Assembly: GCA_963743635.1 (NCBI GenBank)
Contig: CAVUQO010000003.1
Span: 64,001 to 128,000 of the forward strand
Origin: Candidatus Babeliales bacterium
Lineage (GTDB): Bacteria; Babelota; Babeliae; Babelales; Vermiphilaceae
Reading direction: 5' to 3'
Length of the DNA: 64,000 bases
Below the pieces are notes generated by a model. That model did not search any database. It was not told the DNA's origin and saw only the letters and a program-made list of their open reading frames with translations. Every line of letters begins with the position of its first letter. Positions within the stretch are counted from its first letter, which is position 1. The translations under genes and the position numbers were made by a program. Of the stretch, positions 19,791-29,086 are shown piece after piece.

Positions 19791-22424
19791 ATGAATATAG
19801 TCCCTCAAAATCGTGTTGTAAAACGGGTATTATCGAACGGATTGACCGTTTTGGTGTATCGATCTACCAGAATACCAAAAGTGTCCTCTCAGATCTGGTA
19901 TAACGTTGGTTCTAAAAATGAATCAAGTGGTGAGCGAGGACTTGCTCACTTTTTAGAACATCTTGTTTTTAAAGGCACTGAGAAACTTTCCGAGTTAGAT
20001 CTTACTATGATCGCGTACAAATTATCCGGATATTCTAATGCCTTCACTTCATATGATTACACGGGGTATCTCTTTGATTTCCCACGGCAACATTGGGAAA
20101 CGTCGCTCGATCTTTTTGCGGATTGCATGCGTAACTGCACATTTAAAGAAGAATACATTAATTCAGAATTGAAGGCGGTCATTCAAGAGCTAAAGCTTTA
20201 TAAGGACGACTACGTTAGCTCATTAATGGAAGATATGATTTCTATGATCTTTGCCGATCATCCCTATCATTATCCGGTCATTGGGTATAAGCAGGATTTG
20301 TGGTCTATCACGCGTGAATCGGTGATGGCTTTTTATAAAAAGTATTATATTCCTGCGAATGCAACGATTATGATCTTGGGTGATGTAGACCCGGAAGAAG
20401 CATTTGCTGCAGTAGCAAAACGATTTGATGCTATTCCTAGAATAGAACCAGTGCCGCAAATACAAAGTTATTGTAAACAGGATATAACTTCTCGCTCTTT
20501 AACCTTATATCGAGATATAGATCAACCAGTGAGTATGATGGCATTCGTCATTCCAGGCATAAAAGACACAAAAAATGATCTCGCTCTGCTTGCTTCTTGG
20601 ATCATAGCCAATGGAAAAGGTTCTCGCTTATATCGCAAGCTGGTAGATGAGGAAAAATTAGTTTCACATGTAGAGGTAGTACTTGAAAACTTTTTTGAGT
20701 ATGGCGTCTTTTTTATAGGGTTTTACCCTTACAAGCAGGCGGATAATGAGCGCATTATTGCATTGATTAAAAAGGAGCTCGACATTCTCATACGCGACGG
20801 GTTCACCGATGCGGAAATGGCTCGGGCATCAAAAAGAGTGCAAATTAGTTATTTAGCATTGTGCGAAAACAACCAAGAATTTGCGTATGCGATAGCCGAA
20901 ACGTTTTTGGCGACCGGTGATGAGAATTATATCATTGATTATATGAGCTTATTATCAAGAGAGCGTAAAGAGAATGTGCATGCATTTATCAAAGAATATA
21001 TGCGTCCTATTCGTGCGAACACAGGTTTTGTATTGCCTCTTTCTGAATCAGAAGAGAAGGTATGGCTCGCTTTACAAGAAGAGTCAGACAAATTAGATGA
21101 AGAATTTTTATCGAAAAAGATTCGCACGCAACTGGTAGAGCAAAGTGGTGCGGTTGAAAAAGTGCAGATACAAAAAGCGCCTAAATTTAAATTTCCTCAT
21201 CCAGAGCGCATAGATTTGGATAATGGTTTGGGTGTCATTTATCATCAAACTGATCACGCTCAAAAGATAGATCTCATTCTTGATGTAAAGGCATACAATG
21301 CCTATGATCCGCATGATTTGCAGGGATTGCTCTATTTTACGAGTCGTATGGTGCTTGAGGGTACAAAAAATTATTCAGGTCGAGCTCTTGCAGATGAACT
21401 TGAATCGCATGGTATTTTCTTTGATATCAAACCGGGCTTATTTGTGATGAGCATGCTGAGCAGTGATTTTGAAAAGGGGCTTTCATTATTAACCGAAATG
21501 GTCACTAATGCACTCATGGAAGAATCAGCGATTCAAAATGTACGTGCGCAAATAGAAGTGGCATTGAAGAATTATTGGGATGATCCATCACAATTTATCG
21601 ATCAATTAGCGCGGGATATTGTGTATGCAGAGCATCCACATTCCTATAATAGACTCGGCACTATGGAAAGTGTTTTCCGTATTTCGCGTGAAAATATTAT
21701 GGACTGTTATACAAGGATGATGACGCCGCAAGAGGCACGCCTCGTTATAGTTGGTGACATGTCAGGCTATGATGTCAGCGCAATAGTTAAAAAAACAATT
21801 GGCAAATGGCAAGGCCCTCATCTTGAGACGCTCCTCTATCCGATTTTAAGACCGCCTGTTGCTGCGGTAAAAAATTATCCGTTAAATAGAGACCAAGTTA
21901 CTCTTGGTTTTGCAGGACTATCAGTTTCGCGCCTTGATCCTCTTTTTGATCCGCTTCTTTTATTTGATCAAATTTTTGCCGGTGGCGAACTAGGATCTAT
22001 GACTTCTCGTCTTTTTATGTTGCGGGAGCGATCGGGCTTGTTTTATTCAATTGGTGGTTCGCTGCTTAACCAGGCGGGGATTGTGCCAGGTATGATATTT
22101 ATCAATACTCAAGTTTCGCGCGATAGACTGAAAGAGGCGGAAGATGCAATCATAAACCTCTTTAAGCAAGGTACGGCGAATTTGAGTTATGAAGAATTGA
22201 CTCAAGCAAAAAGTGCGGTAATTAATAGCCTAATCGATCATTTTGGATCTAATCTACAAATAGCTATGACATTCTTGCTGATGGATCGATACAATATGCC
22301 GCCTGATTATTTGGATCAACGTGCAGACCTTATTGCACAGGTTACCTGTGATGATGTGATAGAAAGGGTGCAGCCTCTTTTGGATACCAATCATATCGTG
22401 ACGATCCGCATTGGGCGTGTCTAA
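19791..22424 (+). CDS. M16 (pitrilysin/insulinase) zinc peptidase, fused two-subunit type
   Basis: GLAHFLEHLVFKGT (HxxEH), NAFTSYDYT, HPYHYPVIG; second half contains SRLFMLRERSGLFY. Confidence 0.92.
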   Translation: MNIVPQNRVVKRVLSNGLTVLVYRSTRIPKVSSQIWYNVGSKNESSGERGLAHFLEHLVFKGTEKLSELDLTMIAYKLSGYSNAFTSYDYTGYLFDFPRQHWETSLDLFADCMRNCTFKEEYINSELKAVIQELKLYKDDYVSSLMEDMISMIFADHPYHYPVIGYKQDLWSITRESVMAFYKKYYIPANATIMILGDVDPEEAFAAVAKRFDAIPRIEPVPQIQSYCKQDITSRSLTLYRDIDQPVSMMAFVIPGIKDTKNDLALLASWIIANGKGSRLYRKLVDEEKLVSHVEVVLENFFEYGVFFIGFYPYKQADNERIIALIKKELDILIRDGFTDAEMARASKRVQISYLALCENNQEFAYAIAETFLATGDENYIIDYMSLLSRERKENVHAFIKEYMRPIRANTGFVLPLSESEEKVWLALQEESDKLDEEFLSKKIRTQLVEQSGAVEKVQIQKAPKFKFPHPERIDLDNGLGVIYHQTDHAQKIDLILDVKAYNAYDPHDLQGLLYFTSRMVLEGTKNYSGRALADELESHGIFFDIKPGLFVMSMLSSDFEKGLSLLTEMVTNALMEESAIQNVRAQIEVALKNYWDDPSQFIDQLARDIVYAEHPHSYNRLGTMESVFRISRENIMDCYTRMMTPQEARLVIVGDMSGYDVSAIVKKTIGKWQGPHLETLLYPILRPPVAAVKNYPLNRDQVTLGFAGLSVSRLDPLFDPLLLFDQIFAGGELGSMTSRLFMLRERSGLFYSIGGSLLNQAGIVPGMIFINTQVSRDRLKEAEDAIINLFKQGTANLSYEELTQAKSAVINSLIDHFGSNLQIAMTFLLMDRYNMPPDYLDQRADLIAQVTCDDVIERVQPLLDTNHIVTIRIGRV

Positions 22425-22494
22425 TATTGTTTTATGGCTGAGCTTTGTTACACTATTTACGCAATAACTTCCAATTTTAAAAGGGATATCTGTA

Positions 22495-25272
22495 ATGAAA
22501 AAAAGGAACATATTTATCGCGTGTGCACTTATGATTTCTGTGATGATGCATGTAAAAACCAACGAAGATGACATTTTTTGTTTAGAACCAGAGGAAGCAA
22601 TGACGAAATCAGTACATAAATATGTTTTAGATAATGGTATGACGATTCTTGTGCGTGTTGTGCGGACATTGCCAAAAGTCTCGATTCAGCTCTTTTATCA
22701 TGTTGGTTCTAAAGATGAAGGTACCGGCGAACGTGGCATTGCTCACTTTATTGAACATTTAATATTTAAGGGTACGAGTGGTAAGAAATCACTCAATCTT
22801 TCTGAATCTGATATTAACGTGCTCTCGCAAATTTTAGCGGCATATACCAATGCATTCACTTCTTATGATTACACCGGATATCTCTTTAACGTGCCAACCC
22901 ATAATTGGACTCAAGTGCTGCCTATTATGGCCGACTGTATGACCAACTGTGCATTCAAAGATGATCATATTAATTCAGAGATGAAAGCGGTCATTCAAGA
23001 ACTTAAGATGGGTAGAGATAATTATACGCGCGATCTGATGTTTGAAATGGTTGGTACCATTTTCGCAGATCATCCATATCATCATCCGGTTATTGGGTAT
23101 AAGCAAGATTTGTGGAGCATTGATAGCGAAGGATTGCGGGAGTTCTATAAGAAACACTATTTACCAAATAATGCTTTTCTTGTGGTAGTTGGCGACGTTG
23201 ATCCTGAAGCTGTGCGAGATGAAGCGAATAAGGCATTTGGTCACATTAAACCCGATCATAATTATAAAAAACAAACATTCTTCCATAGTAAAAATATCGC
23301 TTCAAAATCAATCACTCTTTATCGTGATATTCAGCAACCAGAAGTGCTTTTGGCATACGTAGTTCCCGGTGAAAATGCTAAGAAAAATGCAATTTTAGAT
23401 GTTATAAACTACGTGCTCTTTGCAGGCAAGAGTTCTCGATTGTATAAAAAATTAATCGATGATTCACAACTGGTGACGGGGCTTTCAGCGGGGAATTGGG
23501 CCCTTTTTGAGCATGGACTTTTCTTTGTTCAGTTTGATCCTAAAAATGTGGCTGATATCGATAAAATTACCAAAATCATTAATGATGAAATAGCATCAAT
23601 CATTAAAAATGGTATCACCGCTAAAGAATTAGAGAGCGCGACCAAAAAGGCTCGTATGAAATATTACGGACTTCTGGAGAACATACAGACTCAAGCATAC
23701 GATATCGGCAAATCATTCCTAGCAACGGGTGATGAAGAATACGTATTAAATTATCTTCAAGAACCATCTGAAGAGCTTGCGCAGGAAGTGCGTGAAATGT
23801 TGGCGCAATACTTTAGACCATCAGTGGTTCATAAAGGAGTGATATTGCCATTACCAGATGAAGAGCGCCAAGCCTGGACGCATATTCAGGAGTCATCAGA
23901 TATGGAAGATAAACGGATTCTGAGCGCGCGCGAGCGTACGTCTCCGGTTGAAGAACCGTCTTTTGCTAAAAAAATAGTGCCTGCTGAGCAAAAAGAATTC
24001 AATTATCCTAAACCTGAAACGTTTATGCTCAGCAATGGGGCAAAAGTTCTTTATCATCACACTGATACTACGCCTAAAATTAATCTGATTATCGATCTCA
24101 AAGCTGCCGATTATTATGATCCGGAAGATAAGCAGGGCCTCTTTGGGTTTGTATCACGCATGCTTACTGAGGGCACTAAGAAATATACTGGCGCAGAACT
24201 CGCGGAAGAGTTGGAATCGCGCGGAATGTCATTCTCGGCGCATCCTGGCGGAGTTATGATGAGCATGCTCTCAGAAGATCTTGAAAAAGGCTTAGAGTTG
24301 CTTGAAGAAATTTTGAATAACGCAACTTTCGATAAAGATGCGATTGAAAAAATTAGAGCGCAATTGCTTGCGGATGTGAAAAGCTTCTGGGATGATCCTA
24401 AAATGTTCGCAAAGCAATTAGTGCGCGAGCAGATCTATAAAGGTCATCCATATGCAAAAAATAGCCTTGGAACAAAAGAGTCTATTGAAAGCATTACGCG
24501 CGAAGATCTCGTTAATTTTTACAAGAAATACGTTCGCCCAGATGGTGCAAAAATTGCCATAGTTGGTGACATAAAAGGATATAATCTTAAAGATGTATTC
24601 AAACATACACTCGGCAAATGGCGCGGTGAGCCGGTGGAAGAAATGAAGTTCCCAGCGTTAAAGCCATGCGAACTTTCAGATTATAATTATCCGATTAACC
24701 GTGATCAGGTTGTACTCTCATTTGTGGGACTTTCAATTGATCGCAAGCATCCTGATTATGATAAGTGCGTACTCTTTGATCAGATCTTTAGCGGAAGATC
24801 ATTGATGTCTATGCATTCGCGTCTATTCCAGCTGCGTGAACAATCAGGTTTATTCTATTCAATTGGTGGTAGCGTCGTGGCTAATGCAAATGAGCAGCCG
24901 GGCATGGTGCAGATAACCACAATGGTATCTCTCGATCGACTCGCTGAAGCTGAAAAAGTGATTAAAGAAACGCTTGATACGGTGCTTGATACTATTCAAC
25001 CGTATGAACTGGATCAGGCGCGTAATGCGATTATCACTTCAATTATCAACAATTTTGAGTCTAACTTTAGCATTGCAAACACGTTCCTATTCTTGGAACG
25101 CTATGGATTTGATTACGATTATTTCGATAAACGTAACGCGCAATATAAAGCAATTAGCCTTGAAGAGATGAAGAAAGCAGTACAATCCATTTTGGATAAA
25201 GCTCCGCTTACCACCTTCCGCATCGGCCGTGTTGAGCAACTGAAGAAACAAAGAGTCCAAGAACAAGATTAA
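22495..25272 (+). CDS. M16 zinc peptidase paralog with putative signal peptide
   Basis: GIAHFIEHLIFKGT, NAFTSYDYT, SRLFQLREQSGLFY; N-terminal MKKRNIFIACALMISV. Confidence 0.92.
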   Translation: MKKRNIFIACALMISVMMHVKTNEDDIFCLEPEEAMTKSVHKYVLDNGMTILVRVVRTLPKVSIQLFYHVGSKDEGTGERGIAHFIEHLIFKGTSGKKSLNLSESDINVLSQILAAYTNAFTSYDYTGYLFNVPTHNWTQVLPIMADCMTNCAFKDDHINSEMKAVIQELKMGRDNYTRDLMFEMVGTIFADHPYHHPVIGYKQDLWSIDSEGLREFYKKHYLPNNAFLVVVGDVDPEAVRDEANKAFGHIKPDHNYKKQTFFHSKNIASKSITLYRDIQQPEVLLAYVVPGENAKKNAILDVINYVLFAGKSSRLYKKLIDDSQLVTGLSAGNWALFEHGLFFVQFDPKNVADIDKITKIINDEIASIIKNGITAKELESATKKARMKYYGLLENIQTQAYDIGKSFLATGDEEYVLNYLQEPSEELAQEVREMLAQYFRPSVVHKGVILPLPDEERQAWTHIQESSDMEDKRILSARERTSPVEEPSFAKKIVPAEQKEFNYPKPETFMLSNGAKVLYHHTDTTPKINLIIDLKAADYYDPEDKQGLFGFVSRMLTEGTKKYTGAELAEELESRGMSFSAHPGGVMMSMLSEDLEKGLELLEEILNNATFDKDAIEKIRAQLLADVKSFWDDPKMFAKQLVREQIYKGHPYAKNSLGTKESIESITREDLVNFYKKYVRPDGAKIAIVGDIKGYNLKDVFKHTLGKWRGEPVEEMKFPALKPCELSDYNYPINRDQVVLSFVGLSIDRKHPDYDKCVLFDQIFSGRSLMSMHSRLFQLREQSGLFYSIGGSVVANANEQPGMVQITTMVSLDRLAEAEKVIKETLDTVLDTIQPYELDQARNAIITSIINNFESNFSIANTFLFLERYGFDYDYFDKRNAQYKAISLEEMKKAVQSILDKAPLTTFRIGRVEQLKKQRVQEQD

Positions 25273-26307: not shown

Positions 26308-26864
26308 TGATGAAATATCTAGTAACTGCAAGCATAATGAGCTCAAGCATATTAGTTGCAGGCATACCCAATAATCTTTTATCTATGGCGTCAGCATTGC
26401 GTGCAGTTGCGGCATCTCGGAACTCAGTTCGAGCGTACAGCGCCAATCCAGAAAGAACTATAGATAGTCTCTTGCAGCAAGAAAACATGATTGTGCATGA
26501 AATAAATAAGCTTGAAAAAATGATGGGATATTGGATGGATCGGGAGATCGGGGAGCAATGCCTTAACCCTGGTAAATCATACTCCTATGAAATAAAAGTT
26601 TGTGCAGAAAAGAGAGAAAATCTACGTAAAAAACATGATTCAGTGACAAAAAAAATCTCCAAGAAAATTGAAGAAATGTATGACCAAAAAGATGAAGAAA
26701 GCCATTTACTGAAAAATCTTGGAGTATTAGATAGTCAATATCAGGTTGCTTGTCGAGAAGAGGATGACGGGTTTGATTTTACAAGATTTGACATTGAACG
26801 CAGAATTTTGTGTGAGAAAATCGATGCGTTAAAAAAAGAAAGATATTCAAACCCTCGTGGTTAA
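26307..26864 (+). CDS. Secreted hypothetical coiled-coil protein
   Basis: MMKYLVTASIMSSSILVA N-terminus; start overlaps the previous stop. Confidence 0.65.
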   Translation: MMKYLVTASIMSSSILVAGIPNNLLSMASALRAVAASRNSVRAYSANPERTIDSLLQQENMIVHEINKLEKMMGYWMDREIGEQCLNPGKSYSYEIKVCAEKRENLRKKHDSVTKKISKKIEEMYDQKDEESHLLKNLGVLDSQYQVACREEDDGFDFTRFDIERRILCEKIDALKKERYSNPRG

Positions 26865-27766
26865 ATCAACTGCTTTAACGAATTCGCTGATTTTTCCAAT
26901 AACTTCTTTTCCTCATCATTCAATTTAATATCAATGCGACGTTCGACGCCACGCCTTCCCAACACCACCGGCATATTCAGGCATAGTTTGAATTCTTCGA
27001 TGTAGGTCGAGACCGGCACAATCAAATGCTGATTAAATAACACACACTCGCAGAGAGCCGCTACGCAGGCAGCAACGCCAAAGAACGTAGCGCCTTTGCA
27101 TTTAATGATCTCATATGCTTTGTTTTTGGTTTGTTCTGCCATGTCATCAAGATCTTTTTTATTGATCCCTGGATATTCAAGGAGTGGCACGCAACCAACA
27201 TAGGCGCACGACCATGCAGGAAATTGCGTATCGCCATGCTCGCCCAAGATATATGTGCTGATCGATCGTTCTGAGATGGTTAGCTTGTTTGCGAGAGTTA
27301 CATTTATGCGTTGCGAATCGAGCATGGTGCCAGAGCCTATGATTTGGGTGCGCGGAATATTTGCAATGTTTTGCGCAAGAAGGGTCATGATATCAACGGG
27401 ATTGGTAACCATGATGATAATGGTTTCAGGATTGAGAGGCGTAATCGATTTCATAACCGAGCTAATAATCCCGCGATTTTTGGCAACCAATTCGGTGCGC
27501 GTTTGATCCGGTTTTTGTGCGACGCCCGCTGCGATAATAATAATATCTGCATCTTTGGTATCATCCACTGAACCAATACGAATATCTGAAGAACTATGAA
27601 ATGAGAGTGCATCTGAAAGATCGAGCACCTCTCCCGAGCAACGCACTTCATCGATATCGATTAACACAATTTCGGCTGCAATATTTTTAAGTAAGATAGC
27701 ATAGGCTGTTGTTGCTCCAACGGAACCGGCGCCAATAATAGCTATTTTTGAAGATTTCATAATCAT
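26861..27766 (-). CDS. ldh: L-lactate dehydrogenase (LDH/MDH family)
   Basis: IIGAGSVG, AGVAQKPDQTR (Gln suggests LDH), VTNPVD, GTMLDSQR, ILGEHGD. Confidence 0.9.
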   Translation of the reverse strand: MIMKSSKIAIIGAGSVGATTAYAILLKNIAAEIVLIDIDEVRCSGEVLDLSDALSFHSSSDIRIGSVDDTKDADIIIIAAGVAQKPDQTRTELVAKNRGIISSVMKSITPLNPETIIIMVTNPVDIMTLLAQNIANIPRTQIIGSGTMLDSQRINVTLANKLTISERSISTYILGEHGDTQFPAWSCAYVGCVPLLEYPGINKKDLDDMAEQTKNKAYEIIKCKGATFFGVAACVAALCECVLFNQHLIVPVSTYIEEFKLCLNMPVVLGRRGVERRIDIKLNDEEKKLLEKSANSLKQLI

Positions 27767-27964
27767 CCTTTTTTGACTTTATTCAACATTTAATAGTTTT
27801 TAACAATTTTTTATAAATTTTTAATACAATTCTATTGTTATCACAAAAAAATACCTTACAATAATCATATTATTGAGATCAAATGCTAATCTTTGAAAAT
27901 TCTTAATAAAAGCAGATTTATAAAAGAGATATAGAAACTATTAATCCTAATAAGGAGGCTACCC

Positions 27965-28039
27965 ATGGCAGATAAAAAGAAAAAACCAGCAGCTAAACCA
28001 GCAGCTAAAAAAGATGACAAAAACAAGAAGAAGAAATAG
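27965..28039 (+). CDS. 24-aa Lys-rich peptide MADKKKKPAAKPAAKKDDKNKKKK, copy 1
   Basis: SD AGGAGG upstream; same peptide as copy 2 with only synonymous differences. Confidence 0.8.
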   Translation: MADKKKKPAAKPAAKKDDKNKKKK

Positions 28040-28073
28040 TCAGACATAACCAATTATTGCTAGGAGGATTCCC

Positions 28074-28148
28074 ATGGCAGATAAGAAGAAAAAGCCAGCA
28101 GCTAAACCAGCGGCTAAAAAAGACGACAAAAACAAAAAGAAGAAGTAA
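28074..28148 (+). CDS. 24-aa Lys-rich peptide MADKKKKPAAKPAAKKDDKNKKKK, copy 2
   Basis: SD AGGAGG upstream; terminator downstream. Confidence 0.8.
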   Translation: MADKKKKPAAKPAAKKDDKNKKKK

Positions 28149-28210
28149 ATTCAGCCTTCGTTTATCCAGGCCTTCTGGCTTGGCAAACTACGGCGTGACT
28201 TAATTTTTTT

Positions 28211-28247
28211 AAAATACGGGCGGCATAAAAACTGCCCGTATTTTTTT
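28211..28247 (+). terminator. Intrinsic terminator after the twin peptide genes
   Basis: aaaatacgggcgg-loop-ctgcccgtattttttt. Confidence 0.8.
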
Positions 28248-28264
28248 AACCATTAAAAATCTAT

Positions 28265-29086
28265 ATGAACATCACCAAGCAAAAATTATTATCATTCCGA
28301 GATTTTATCTGGGCCTTCTATGAAAAAGAAGGAAGAAGATTTGAGTGGCGCAATGTAGATAATCCATACTACGTTCTAGTATCGGAAATCATGCTCCAAC
28401 AAACCCAGACCTATCGGGTTGAGCCCAAATATCAGGCATTTATAGCAGAGTTTCCTAATTTTGAAGCACTTGCGCAGGCATCATTGCGCGATGTGCTCGG
28501 CATGTGGCAGGGGTTGGGGTATAATCGACGTGGAAAATTTCTACATCAAACCGCTCAACGCGTGGTGCAAGAGTATGCGGGAAATCTACCCGATGACCCT
28601 GAACTGCTTGTCACTTTCCCCGGCATTGGAAAAAACACCGCCGGATCTGTTACCGCATTTGCATTCAATAAGCCGACCGTTTTTATTGAGACCAATATTC
28701 GCACGGTTTTTATTCATTCATTTTTTAAAAATCAAGAATCGGTCCACGATAATCTCATCTTACCGCTTGTAGAGCAAACGGTTGATCAGGATAATCCGCG
28801 CGAATGGTATTACGCGCTCATGGATTATGGCGTGCATCTTAAAAAATCGATGCCCAACCCAAGCCGCCGCAGCAAGCATCACGTTATACAATCTAAATTT
28901 GAAGGCTCAGATCGACAAATTCGCGGCGCAATCATTCGTGCGCTCGTCGAGCGTCCCTCGCTCTCTGAATCAGAATTGAGCATTATCTGCAAGAATGATG
29001 CACGGGTATCCAACATCATCCAGGAACTGGAGCAAGAGCAATTGATCGAACGTAAAAATGATATGTTTTGCATTCGCAATGCATGA
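28265..29086 (+). CDS. mutY: A/G-specific adenine glycosylase, short MutY-like form without Fe-S cysteines
   Basis: VSEIMLQQTQ, WQGLGYNRR, HhH FPGIGKNTA, ALMDYG. Confidence 0.85.
   Translation: MNITKQKLLSFRDFIWAFYEKEGRRFEWRNVDNPYYVLVSEIMLQQTQTYRVEPKYQAFIAEFPNFEALAQASLRDVLGMWQGLGYNRRGKFLHQTAQRVVQEYAGNLPDDPELLVTFPGIGKNTAGSVTAFAFNKPTVFIETNIRTVFIHSFFKNQESVHDNLILPLVEQTVDQDNPREWYYALMDYGVHLKKSMPNPSRRSKHHVIQSKFEGSDRQIRGAIIRALVERPSLSESELSIICKNDARVSNIIQELEQEQLIERKNDMFCIRNA

Follow-up and report, generated by a model that had tools for sequence, protein, structure and literature searches.

The closest described systems to the element that we report here are the histone H1-like proteins and tails (Chlamydia Hc1/Hc2, AlgP, mycobacterial HupB/Hlp and the PAKKA tails of Ku), which are roughly 50-200 residues long, carry many repeats and vary in length. 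Two groups of smaller proteins also invite comparison: ScvA of Coxiella burnetii, whose composition is Arg/Gln-rich and not Lys/Ala/Pro-rich, and the tiny ribosomal proteins bTHX, bS22, bL37 and eL41, which are polycationic, about 24-33 residues long and tightly conserved, and which fill a defined rRNA pocket. For gene layout, the nearest case is E. coli rpsU-dnaG-rpoD, where a strongly expressed gene for a small basic protein is followed by a terminator and by a weakly expressed, promoterless gene for a DNA enzyme. Here we analyse a 64,000-nt stretch of DNA from a Candidatus Babeliales bacterium (the window, G000:C3:64001-128000, in a genome of 1.45 Mb with 42% GC and 85% complete), in which two tandem open reading frames (ORFs) of 24 codons encode one and the same Lys-rich peptide. 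Judged from the coding pattern and a comparison with a sister species, the twin ORFs very probably are a real, translated gene under purifying selection.

The two ORFs and their Shine-Dalgarno (SD) sequences are located in the window as follows.

27965-28039, plus strand: ORF1, 24 codons then TAG, product MADKKKKPAAKPAAKKDDKNKKKK.
28074-28148, plus strand: ORF2, 24 codons then TAA, product MADKKKKPAAKPAAKKDDKNKKKK, the same as for ORF1.
27953-27958, plus strand: SD sequence AGGAGG of ORF1, with the ATG 6 nt downstream.
28062-28067, plus strand: SD sequence AGGAGG of ORF2, with the ATG 6 nt downstream.

Re-derived from the sequence, these features agree with the initial annotation, which had placed two ORFs at these positions with a common product containing 12 Lys and 3 Asp in its 24 residues. 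The two copies differ at 7 of 75 nt, namely six silent third-position transitions (the six synonymous codons that had been listed) and the stop codon, TAG in one and TAA in the other; the AGGAGG sites and the unrelated flanks were reproduced as well, the likeness of the copies extending from the SD to the stop codon and the sequence around each copy being unrelated. The 3' end of the organism's 16S rRNA contains CACCUCCUU, the complement of AGGAGG, and a full AGGAGG is present in the SD window of just 14 of the 844 long ORFs of this genome, so that the ribosome-binding sites of the twin ORFs are unusually strong. The codon choice of the twin ORFs (AAG, GAC, AAC, CCA) leans the way that of the ribosomal-protein cluster does, on small numbers. 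Contigs from four public sequencing runs, of four studies, carry the stretch with no differences, and one of them covers both ORFs; the tandem is therefore not an assembly artefact. The best-matching run may be the source sample of the genome, and with zero variants these contigs hold no comparative information.

Such information comes from a contig of a sister species, L042, the one metagenome contig matched by a degenerate pattern for 14 of the peptide residues, with two matches on it. The order in L042 is the same as in the window: a lactate dehydrogenase gene (ldh), a promoter block, ORF, ORF, a terminator and a mutY-like gene. Both L042 ORFs encode a 24-residue peptide identical to that of the window, and all four copies are the same; at the nucleotide level, the orthologue of ORF1 has three silent differences and that of ORF2 has two. 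The alignment of the four copies has eight variable sites, each of them a transition at a third position (P = 6e-5, for a single given codon position), which backs the proposal of the initial annotation that purifying selection acts here on micro-genes that annotation would miss. The flanking genes have changed considerably between the two species: ldh is 73% identical in nucleotides and 79% in amino acids, with a replacement divergence (dN) of 0.134 and a saturated synonymous divergence (dS), and the mutY-like gene is 83% and 89% identical, with dN 0.059 and dS 1.08. For the peptide, dN is 0; the replacement rates of the flanks predict 3.5-8 amino-acid changes per orthologous pair, and none is seen (P <= 9e-4, both pairs). 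The ORFs, the SDs, the promoter block and the terminator are all kept, and no alignment is possible for the spacer between the ORFs or for the sequence separating ORF2 from the terminator. Because the spacers cannot be aligned while the peptides are identical, recent transfer cannot explain the identity, and selection can. At three sites, the first copies of the two species cluster together, and so do the second copies, from which it follows that the duplication predates the species split and that both copies have been retained since.

The substitution pattern alone cannot identify the coding strand, because the third positions of the sense frame are also the third positions of one antisense frame. 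All eight changes are silent in that antisense frame too, and the hydrophobic core that it encodes, YFFFLFLSSFLAAGLAAGFFFLSAMG, does not vary among the four copies. The limits of the conserved block on the plus strand coincide exactly with the SD, the ATG and the stop codon. On the minus strand, the core has neither an ATG nor an SD ahead of it in any of the four copies, a stop codon occurs 2-3 codons upstream of it in two of the four, and its N- and C-terminal continuations differ in every copy. By these start, SD and stop signals, plus is the coding strand. A search of the opposite strand for an antisense ORF of the type I toxin-like hydrophobic kind, with a start codon and a ribosome-binding site of its own, found none.

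To determine the distribution of the unit we used DNA patterns together with protein, synteny and de novo scans. These searches cover one genome per species, and the nearest relatives among them belong to other genera, with MutY-like proteins at 55-66% identity. A protein search with E up to 10 picks out two of 41 genomes, the window's own and one with a spurious hit (E 0.39) to a 20-residue stretch of a 335-aa frame. The pattern KPAAKPAAKK, allowing at most two mismatches, is found in 21 of 261 phylum genomes; all matches outside the window's own genome are inside open frames of 90-646 aa, and they include tails of bS2, bS16 and other proteins. An SD followed by MADKKKK, again with at most two mismatches, is found in 7 of the 261, the six foreign ORFs (8, 22, 104, 106, 174 and 507 aa) being unrelated, and a C-terminal pattern with at most three mismatches is found in 6 of the 261, with five foreign matches that are unconvincing. 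The foreign matches of these last two patterns lie partly in long frames and partly in unrelated short ones (6-26 aa). The exact degenerate core has no match in the species genomes, a collection that may not include the window's own record, and none in viral contigs. A comparable ORF appears at none of 29 loci beside mutY-like orthologues and at none of 17 loci beside Dependentiae-type ldh genes. In the complete 1.096-Mb genome of a relative (G002), a de novo scan for SD-led, Lys/Arg-rich ORFs of 12-60 aa reports bL34, two weak ORFs and nothing else; applied to the window's genome, it ranks the twin ORFs first. A weak DNA match elsewhere in that genome (G000:C3:792070) was dismissed as another frame of a large protein. 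By these searches the unit looks genus-specific. The initial annotation had named a lack of conserved homologues as grounds for giving up its proposal, and the proposal escapes narrowly, with one sister contig that carries identical peptides and with no twin unit found in the 260 other phylum genomes, at the syntenic loci or in G002. In the literature we found nothing on such a peptide in Dependentiae, nor a matching unannotated lysine-rich, ribosome-associated small protein.

Two genes flank the unit.

26861-27766, minus strand: L-lactate dehydrogenase gene (ldh), the divergent neighbour; TIGR01771, 322 bits with a cut-off of 303.6.
28265-29086, plus strand: gene for a MutY-like HhH-GPD DNA glycosylase; Pfam HhH-GPD, E 6.5e-15; NCBIfam mutY, E 4.9e-46, below the curated cut-off.

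The nearest relatives of the Ldh protein, at 46-57% identity, are named Candidatus Dependentiae or Babeliales, which is consistent with the Dependentiae affiliation that had been proposed. In 12 of 29 relatives ldh adjoins the mutY-like gene in the same divergent orientation, and in 4 of those 29 the starts of the two genes are about 84-204 nt apart; the distance in the window is 498 nt. The short interval in relatives indicates that the unit is an addition of this genus inside the divergent promoter region and 5' leader of the mutY-like gene. The others of the 12 have a membrane-protein gene in between. That protein has no Lys-rich part, which excludes the twin unit as a remnant of it. The mutY-like gene of the window starts 17 nt past the T-run of the terminator, which leaves no space for a promoter of its own, and given this gap the gene is probably fed by terminator read-through. 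A Pfam scan of 17 ORFs, over about 18.6-37.3 kb of the window, finds no ribosomal operon and no maturase, secretion or transporter gene beside the unit. On the other side of ldh, at 19791-25272 on the plus strand, there are two adjacent large genes for M16 (insulinase-type) peptidases of 877 and 925 aa. Three small ORFs of no known family separate them from ldh, and the L042 ORFs at that place differ in length and sequence.

The noncoding part of the locus contains five further features.

27815-27900, no strand: conserved intergenic block, common to the divergent ldh, with promoter-like elements; 72 of 86 nt identical in L042.
27835-27862, plus strand: sigma-70-like promoter TTGTTA-N16-TACAAT, presumed for the twin ORFs; from a consensus scan, both hexamers unchanged in L042.
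27859-27875, no strand: perfect palindrome CAATAAT-N3-ATTATTG with 7-bp arms, overlapping the -10 element; arms kept in L042.
28152-28195, no strand: copy of a dispersed hairpin repeat of 44 nt, which occurs at least 8 times in the genome.
28211-28247, plus strand: intrinsic terminator with a 13-bp stem, an 8-nt loop and T7; fold of -18.8 kcal/mol.

The intergenic block is kept better than the flanking coding sequences, at 73% and 83% nucleotide identity, and it must also serve the divergent ldh; promoter-like sites of the two directions overlap in it. A possible role for the palindrome is that of an operator common to ldh and the twin unit. The genome has no second perfect copy of the palindrome or of the promoter block (five other palindrome matches have one mismatch each), so that no regulon can be defined. 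The dispersed repeat is missing at the orthologous position in L042 and for that reason is probably an insertion that plays no part in the function of the unit. Its copies are spread across all three contigs of the genome, some of them embedded in longer shared repeats, and the repeat is also seen in other contexts on the public-run contigs. The terminator that the initial annotation had placed after the twin ORFs is present, with its 13-bp stem then T7, and together with the two SDs it agrees with the description of a tandem pair, each ORF with its own SD, on one terminated unit. A simple consensus scan missed this terminator. Its counterpart in L042 folds at -15.8 kcal/mol and differs by one compensatory change, from G-C to A-U. 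An Rfam match to L20_leader at 28131-28253 (33.1 bits where the gathering score is 58.7, E 3.7e-4) was judged a chance match and rejected, because it spans the dispersed repeat that the sister species lacks and because no infC-rpmI-rplT genes are found downstream.

The peptide has a mass of about 2.7 kDa (2,696 Da with the initiator Met), an isoelectric point (pI) of 10.3, a charge of +8.5 at pH 7 and a grand average of hydropathy (GRAVY) of -2.2. There is no hydrophobic, aromatic, Cys, Ser, Thr or Arg residue in it. With such a composition the peptide cannot fold alone or enter a membrane, and must act by polyanion binding. Its two PAAK units and its Lys/Ala/Pro make-up are as in the H1 tails, and there is an acidic DD pair. 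The H1-like systems too are Lys/Ala/Pro-rich, Arg-poor and disordered, with a KPAAK-type repeat, and the presumed mode of action common to them and to the peptide is electrostatic nucleic-acid binding. Unlike them, the peptide is free-standing and invariant. It has 24 residues with two PAAK units and the DD pair in place of a long array of Lys-rich pentapeptide-type repeats, and it matches no curated family in Pfam or NCBIfam at E up to 0.01. By family match and by length, the peptide is not a member of the H1 tails; of the H1-like comparison drawn in the initial annotation, the resemblance in Lys/Ala/Pro composition stands, and what does not hold is membership, for a peptide that is too short and has no Pfam match.

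The likeness to ScvA is one of size and charge. ScvA is a tiny basic peptide of the small-cell variant of an intracellular bacterium and, according to PMC13568565, is thought to act in chromatin condensation in the resistant, infectious form. At 24 aa, pI 10.3 and +8.5, the peptide has the size and basicity of the ScvA type, strongly basic and of up to about 30 residues; ScvA is encoded by a single gene, and the peptide here by twin genes. On our best reading, by analogy with these systems, the peptide would work most like a free-standing H1-type tail module or like ScvA, although family match and length place it in neither group.

Lys-rich sequences of related appearance occur elsewhere in the phylum. 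In other families, long KPAAK-type Lys/Ala/Pro tails are found on bS2 (L013, L014, L017, L018), on bS16 (L015) and on an aminoacyl-tRNA-synthetase-like protein (L019); in the genome of the window, bS2 has a Lys/Glu/Ala-rich tail and bS16 has no tail. The same genome encodes, at G000:C3:271783-271989 on the minus strand, a conserved small protein of about 69 aa with no Pfam family, present in 43 of 80 family genomes. Proteins of this type in other phylum families (L021, L022, L024, L036) have a variable KPAAK-repeat tail ending in KKKK. An origin of the peptide as a split-off KPAAK tail of the 69-aa protein or of bS16 is excluded, the tail-less 69-aa form being family-wide (43/80, all of about 68-70 aa). 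Two relatives of the same family (L048, L049) have proteins of about 105 aa similar to a 125-aa H1-like protein of this genome that is discussed below.

Putting these elements together, we propose a mechanism tentatively, and as a whole we give it a little less than an even chance. A promoter at about 27835-27862 would produce a short bicistronic mRNA that ends at the strong terminator at 28211-28247. With a full-strength SD in front of each cistron, the unit would be strongly translated, and one transcript would supply two doses of the 24-residue peptide. The peptide would be disordered and would act through polyanion binding, as is expected of the Lys/Ala/Pro composition of a histone H1 tail. 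The most likely target would be DNA, with the peptide as a counter-ion or compactor of the nucleoid, and the second most likely RNA or the ribosome. Both are hypothetical roles that the initial annotation had put forward, nucleoid condensation there for an infectious stage. Transcripts that pass the leaky terminator would give low-level expression of the mutY-like glycosylase gene, which would have lost the space for its own promoter when the unit arose inside the short divergent region between ldh and the mutY-like gene. The similarity to rpsU-dnaG-rpoD is one of layout only, with read-through here suggested by the 17-nt gap. Also in support of this mechanism, we count the KPAAK-type tails on the nucleic-acid-binding proteins bS2 and bS16 elsewhere in the phylum. 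Chromulinavorax, a cultured member of the Dependentiae, has free particles with a condensed nucleoid, according to PMC6561590.

Several observations weigh against a nucleic-acid-binding polycation of this kind. Among the public sequencing runs listed as carrying the stretch, none is an RNA run, and no RNA or protein sign of expression was found. That none of the 24 residues varies is more in keeping with a specific binding site than with a generic polycation or charge neutralisation. Generic polycationic tails usually evolve fast, and free disordered peptides of 24 residues are often unstable in cells. Outside the window, at G000:C3:50894-51271 on the minus strand, the genome already encodes a Lys/Arg/Ala-rich H1-like protein of 125 aa. 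The silent divergence between orthologous copies of the peptide genes (dS 0.18-0.29) is about 5 times below that of the neighbouring gene. It hints at some extra constraint at the level of the mRNA or of the codons, beyond what the proposed mechanism requires, and it may reflect codon selection in a highly expressed gene. Finally, the comparative support consists of two genomes, with no homologue beyond one sister species.

Invariance at 24/24 residues, while the neighbouring proteins changed at 11-21% of theirs, is also the main argument for a specific structural micro-subunit, such as a micro-protein of this lineage that belongs to the ribosome or associates with it, or the constant partner of one complex, held in a defined pocket. 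The strong SDs and the codon shift resemble those of ribosomal-protein genes, and size and charge are within the range of the known tiny ribosomal proteins. We nevertheless regard a micro-subunit as rather unlikely. The unit has ldh on one side and the mutY-like gene on the other, with no ribosomal operon around or near it, and a phmmer search of all PDB chains at E up to 10 returns no match to a solved chain. The peptide is found in one genus, and its absence from the 260 other phylum genomes and from the de novo scan of G002 would be unusual for a component of the ribosome. Its basic residues are Lys only, accompanied by Pro and Asp, with no Arg or aromatic residue. We also consider a more far-reaching scenario, in which a micro-gene was born or captured in the 5' leader of the mutY-like gene in one Dependentiae genus, was duplicated, and has become as invariant as a core histone, filling one precise site in the ribosome or the nucleoid; this we find doubtful.

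The position of the unit would also fit a regulatory role, in which the twin ORFs would be leader ORFs, and Lys-tRNA supply, or stalling on poly-Lys codons and A-runs, would set how often transcription passes the terminator into the mutY-like gene. The layout is that of an attenuator: ORFs, terminator at 28211-28247 and gene start at 28265 follow one another on the same strand, only 17 nt separate the T-run from the ATG, and the corresponding interval in relatives holds nothing but the 5' leader of the mutY-like gene. Lys accounts for half of the codons. In the minimum-energy folds of both species, however, the terminator forms alongside a separate upstream hairpin whose sequence is unrelated in the two, and no antiterminator pairing competes with the terminator; ORF2 and the terminator are themselves separated by unrelated sequence in the two species. 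An attenuator does not usually have a duplicated ORF or two full-strength SDs, the residues other than Lys are as invariant as the Lys residues, and there is no obvious link from Lys supply to a DNA glycosylase. We therefore consider regulation by leader ORFs improbable.

The chance that the peptide is exported and targets the protist host, whether as a polybasic, nuclear-targeting-like sequence or as a binder of polyanions or surfaces, is slim. Dependentiae parasitise protists (PMC6561590), in mycobacteria the Lys-rich repeat tails of HBHA and Hlp attach to host glycosaminoglycans, and the peptide has two basic clusters. This argument is one of composition alone, and we find no signal peptide, no hydrophobic segment and no adjoining secretion or transporter gene. 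Slimmer still is the possibility that the peptides undergo enzymatic modification, as precursors or substrates, in the manner of the ribosomally synthesized and post-translationally modified peptides (RiPPs), in whose loci identical tandem precursor genes are common: the 17 scanned ORFs include no radical-SAM, ATP-grasp, YcaO, lanthipeptide or other maturase beside the presumed precursors, the nearest peptidases, the two M16 genes, lie beyond ldh and three intervening ORFs that are not in L042, and the peptide has no Cys, Ser or Thr. That the opposite strand codes for a small hydrophobic membrane peptide around the conserved core, in spite of the silent changes described above, we find hardly credible, since the conservation runs exactly from the sense SD to the sense stop, the core has neither a start nor constant continuations, and the kept terminator serves the plus strand.

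At 24 codons, the twin genes are too short for the length cut-offs of gene callers and protein databases, which makes them invisible to annotation, although they show one of the cleanest coding signatures obtainable from sequence alone. Their age is bracketed, because one genus has the unit and relatives with the same neighbouring genes do not, and they are a useful case for the birth of an orphan micro-gene, its duplication and its fixation under strong constraint. The locus also suggests how a repair gene can come to rely on read-through from a newly arisen upstream unit. If the peptide occupies a precise site, it would offer a dated instance in which a very young gene has turned into a tightly constrained part of a central machine; if it is abundant, it would be a minimal natural polycation that packs DNA or RNA in a protist parasite with a reduced genome.

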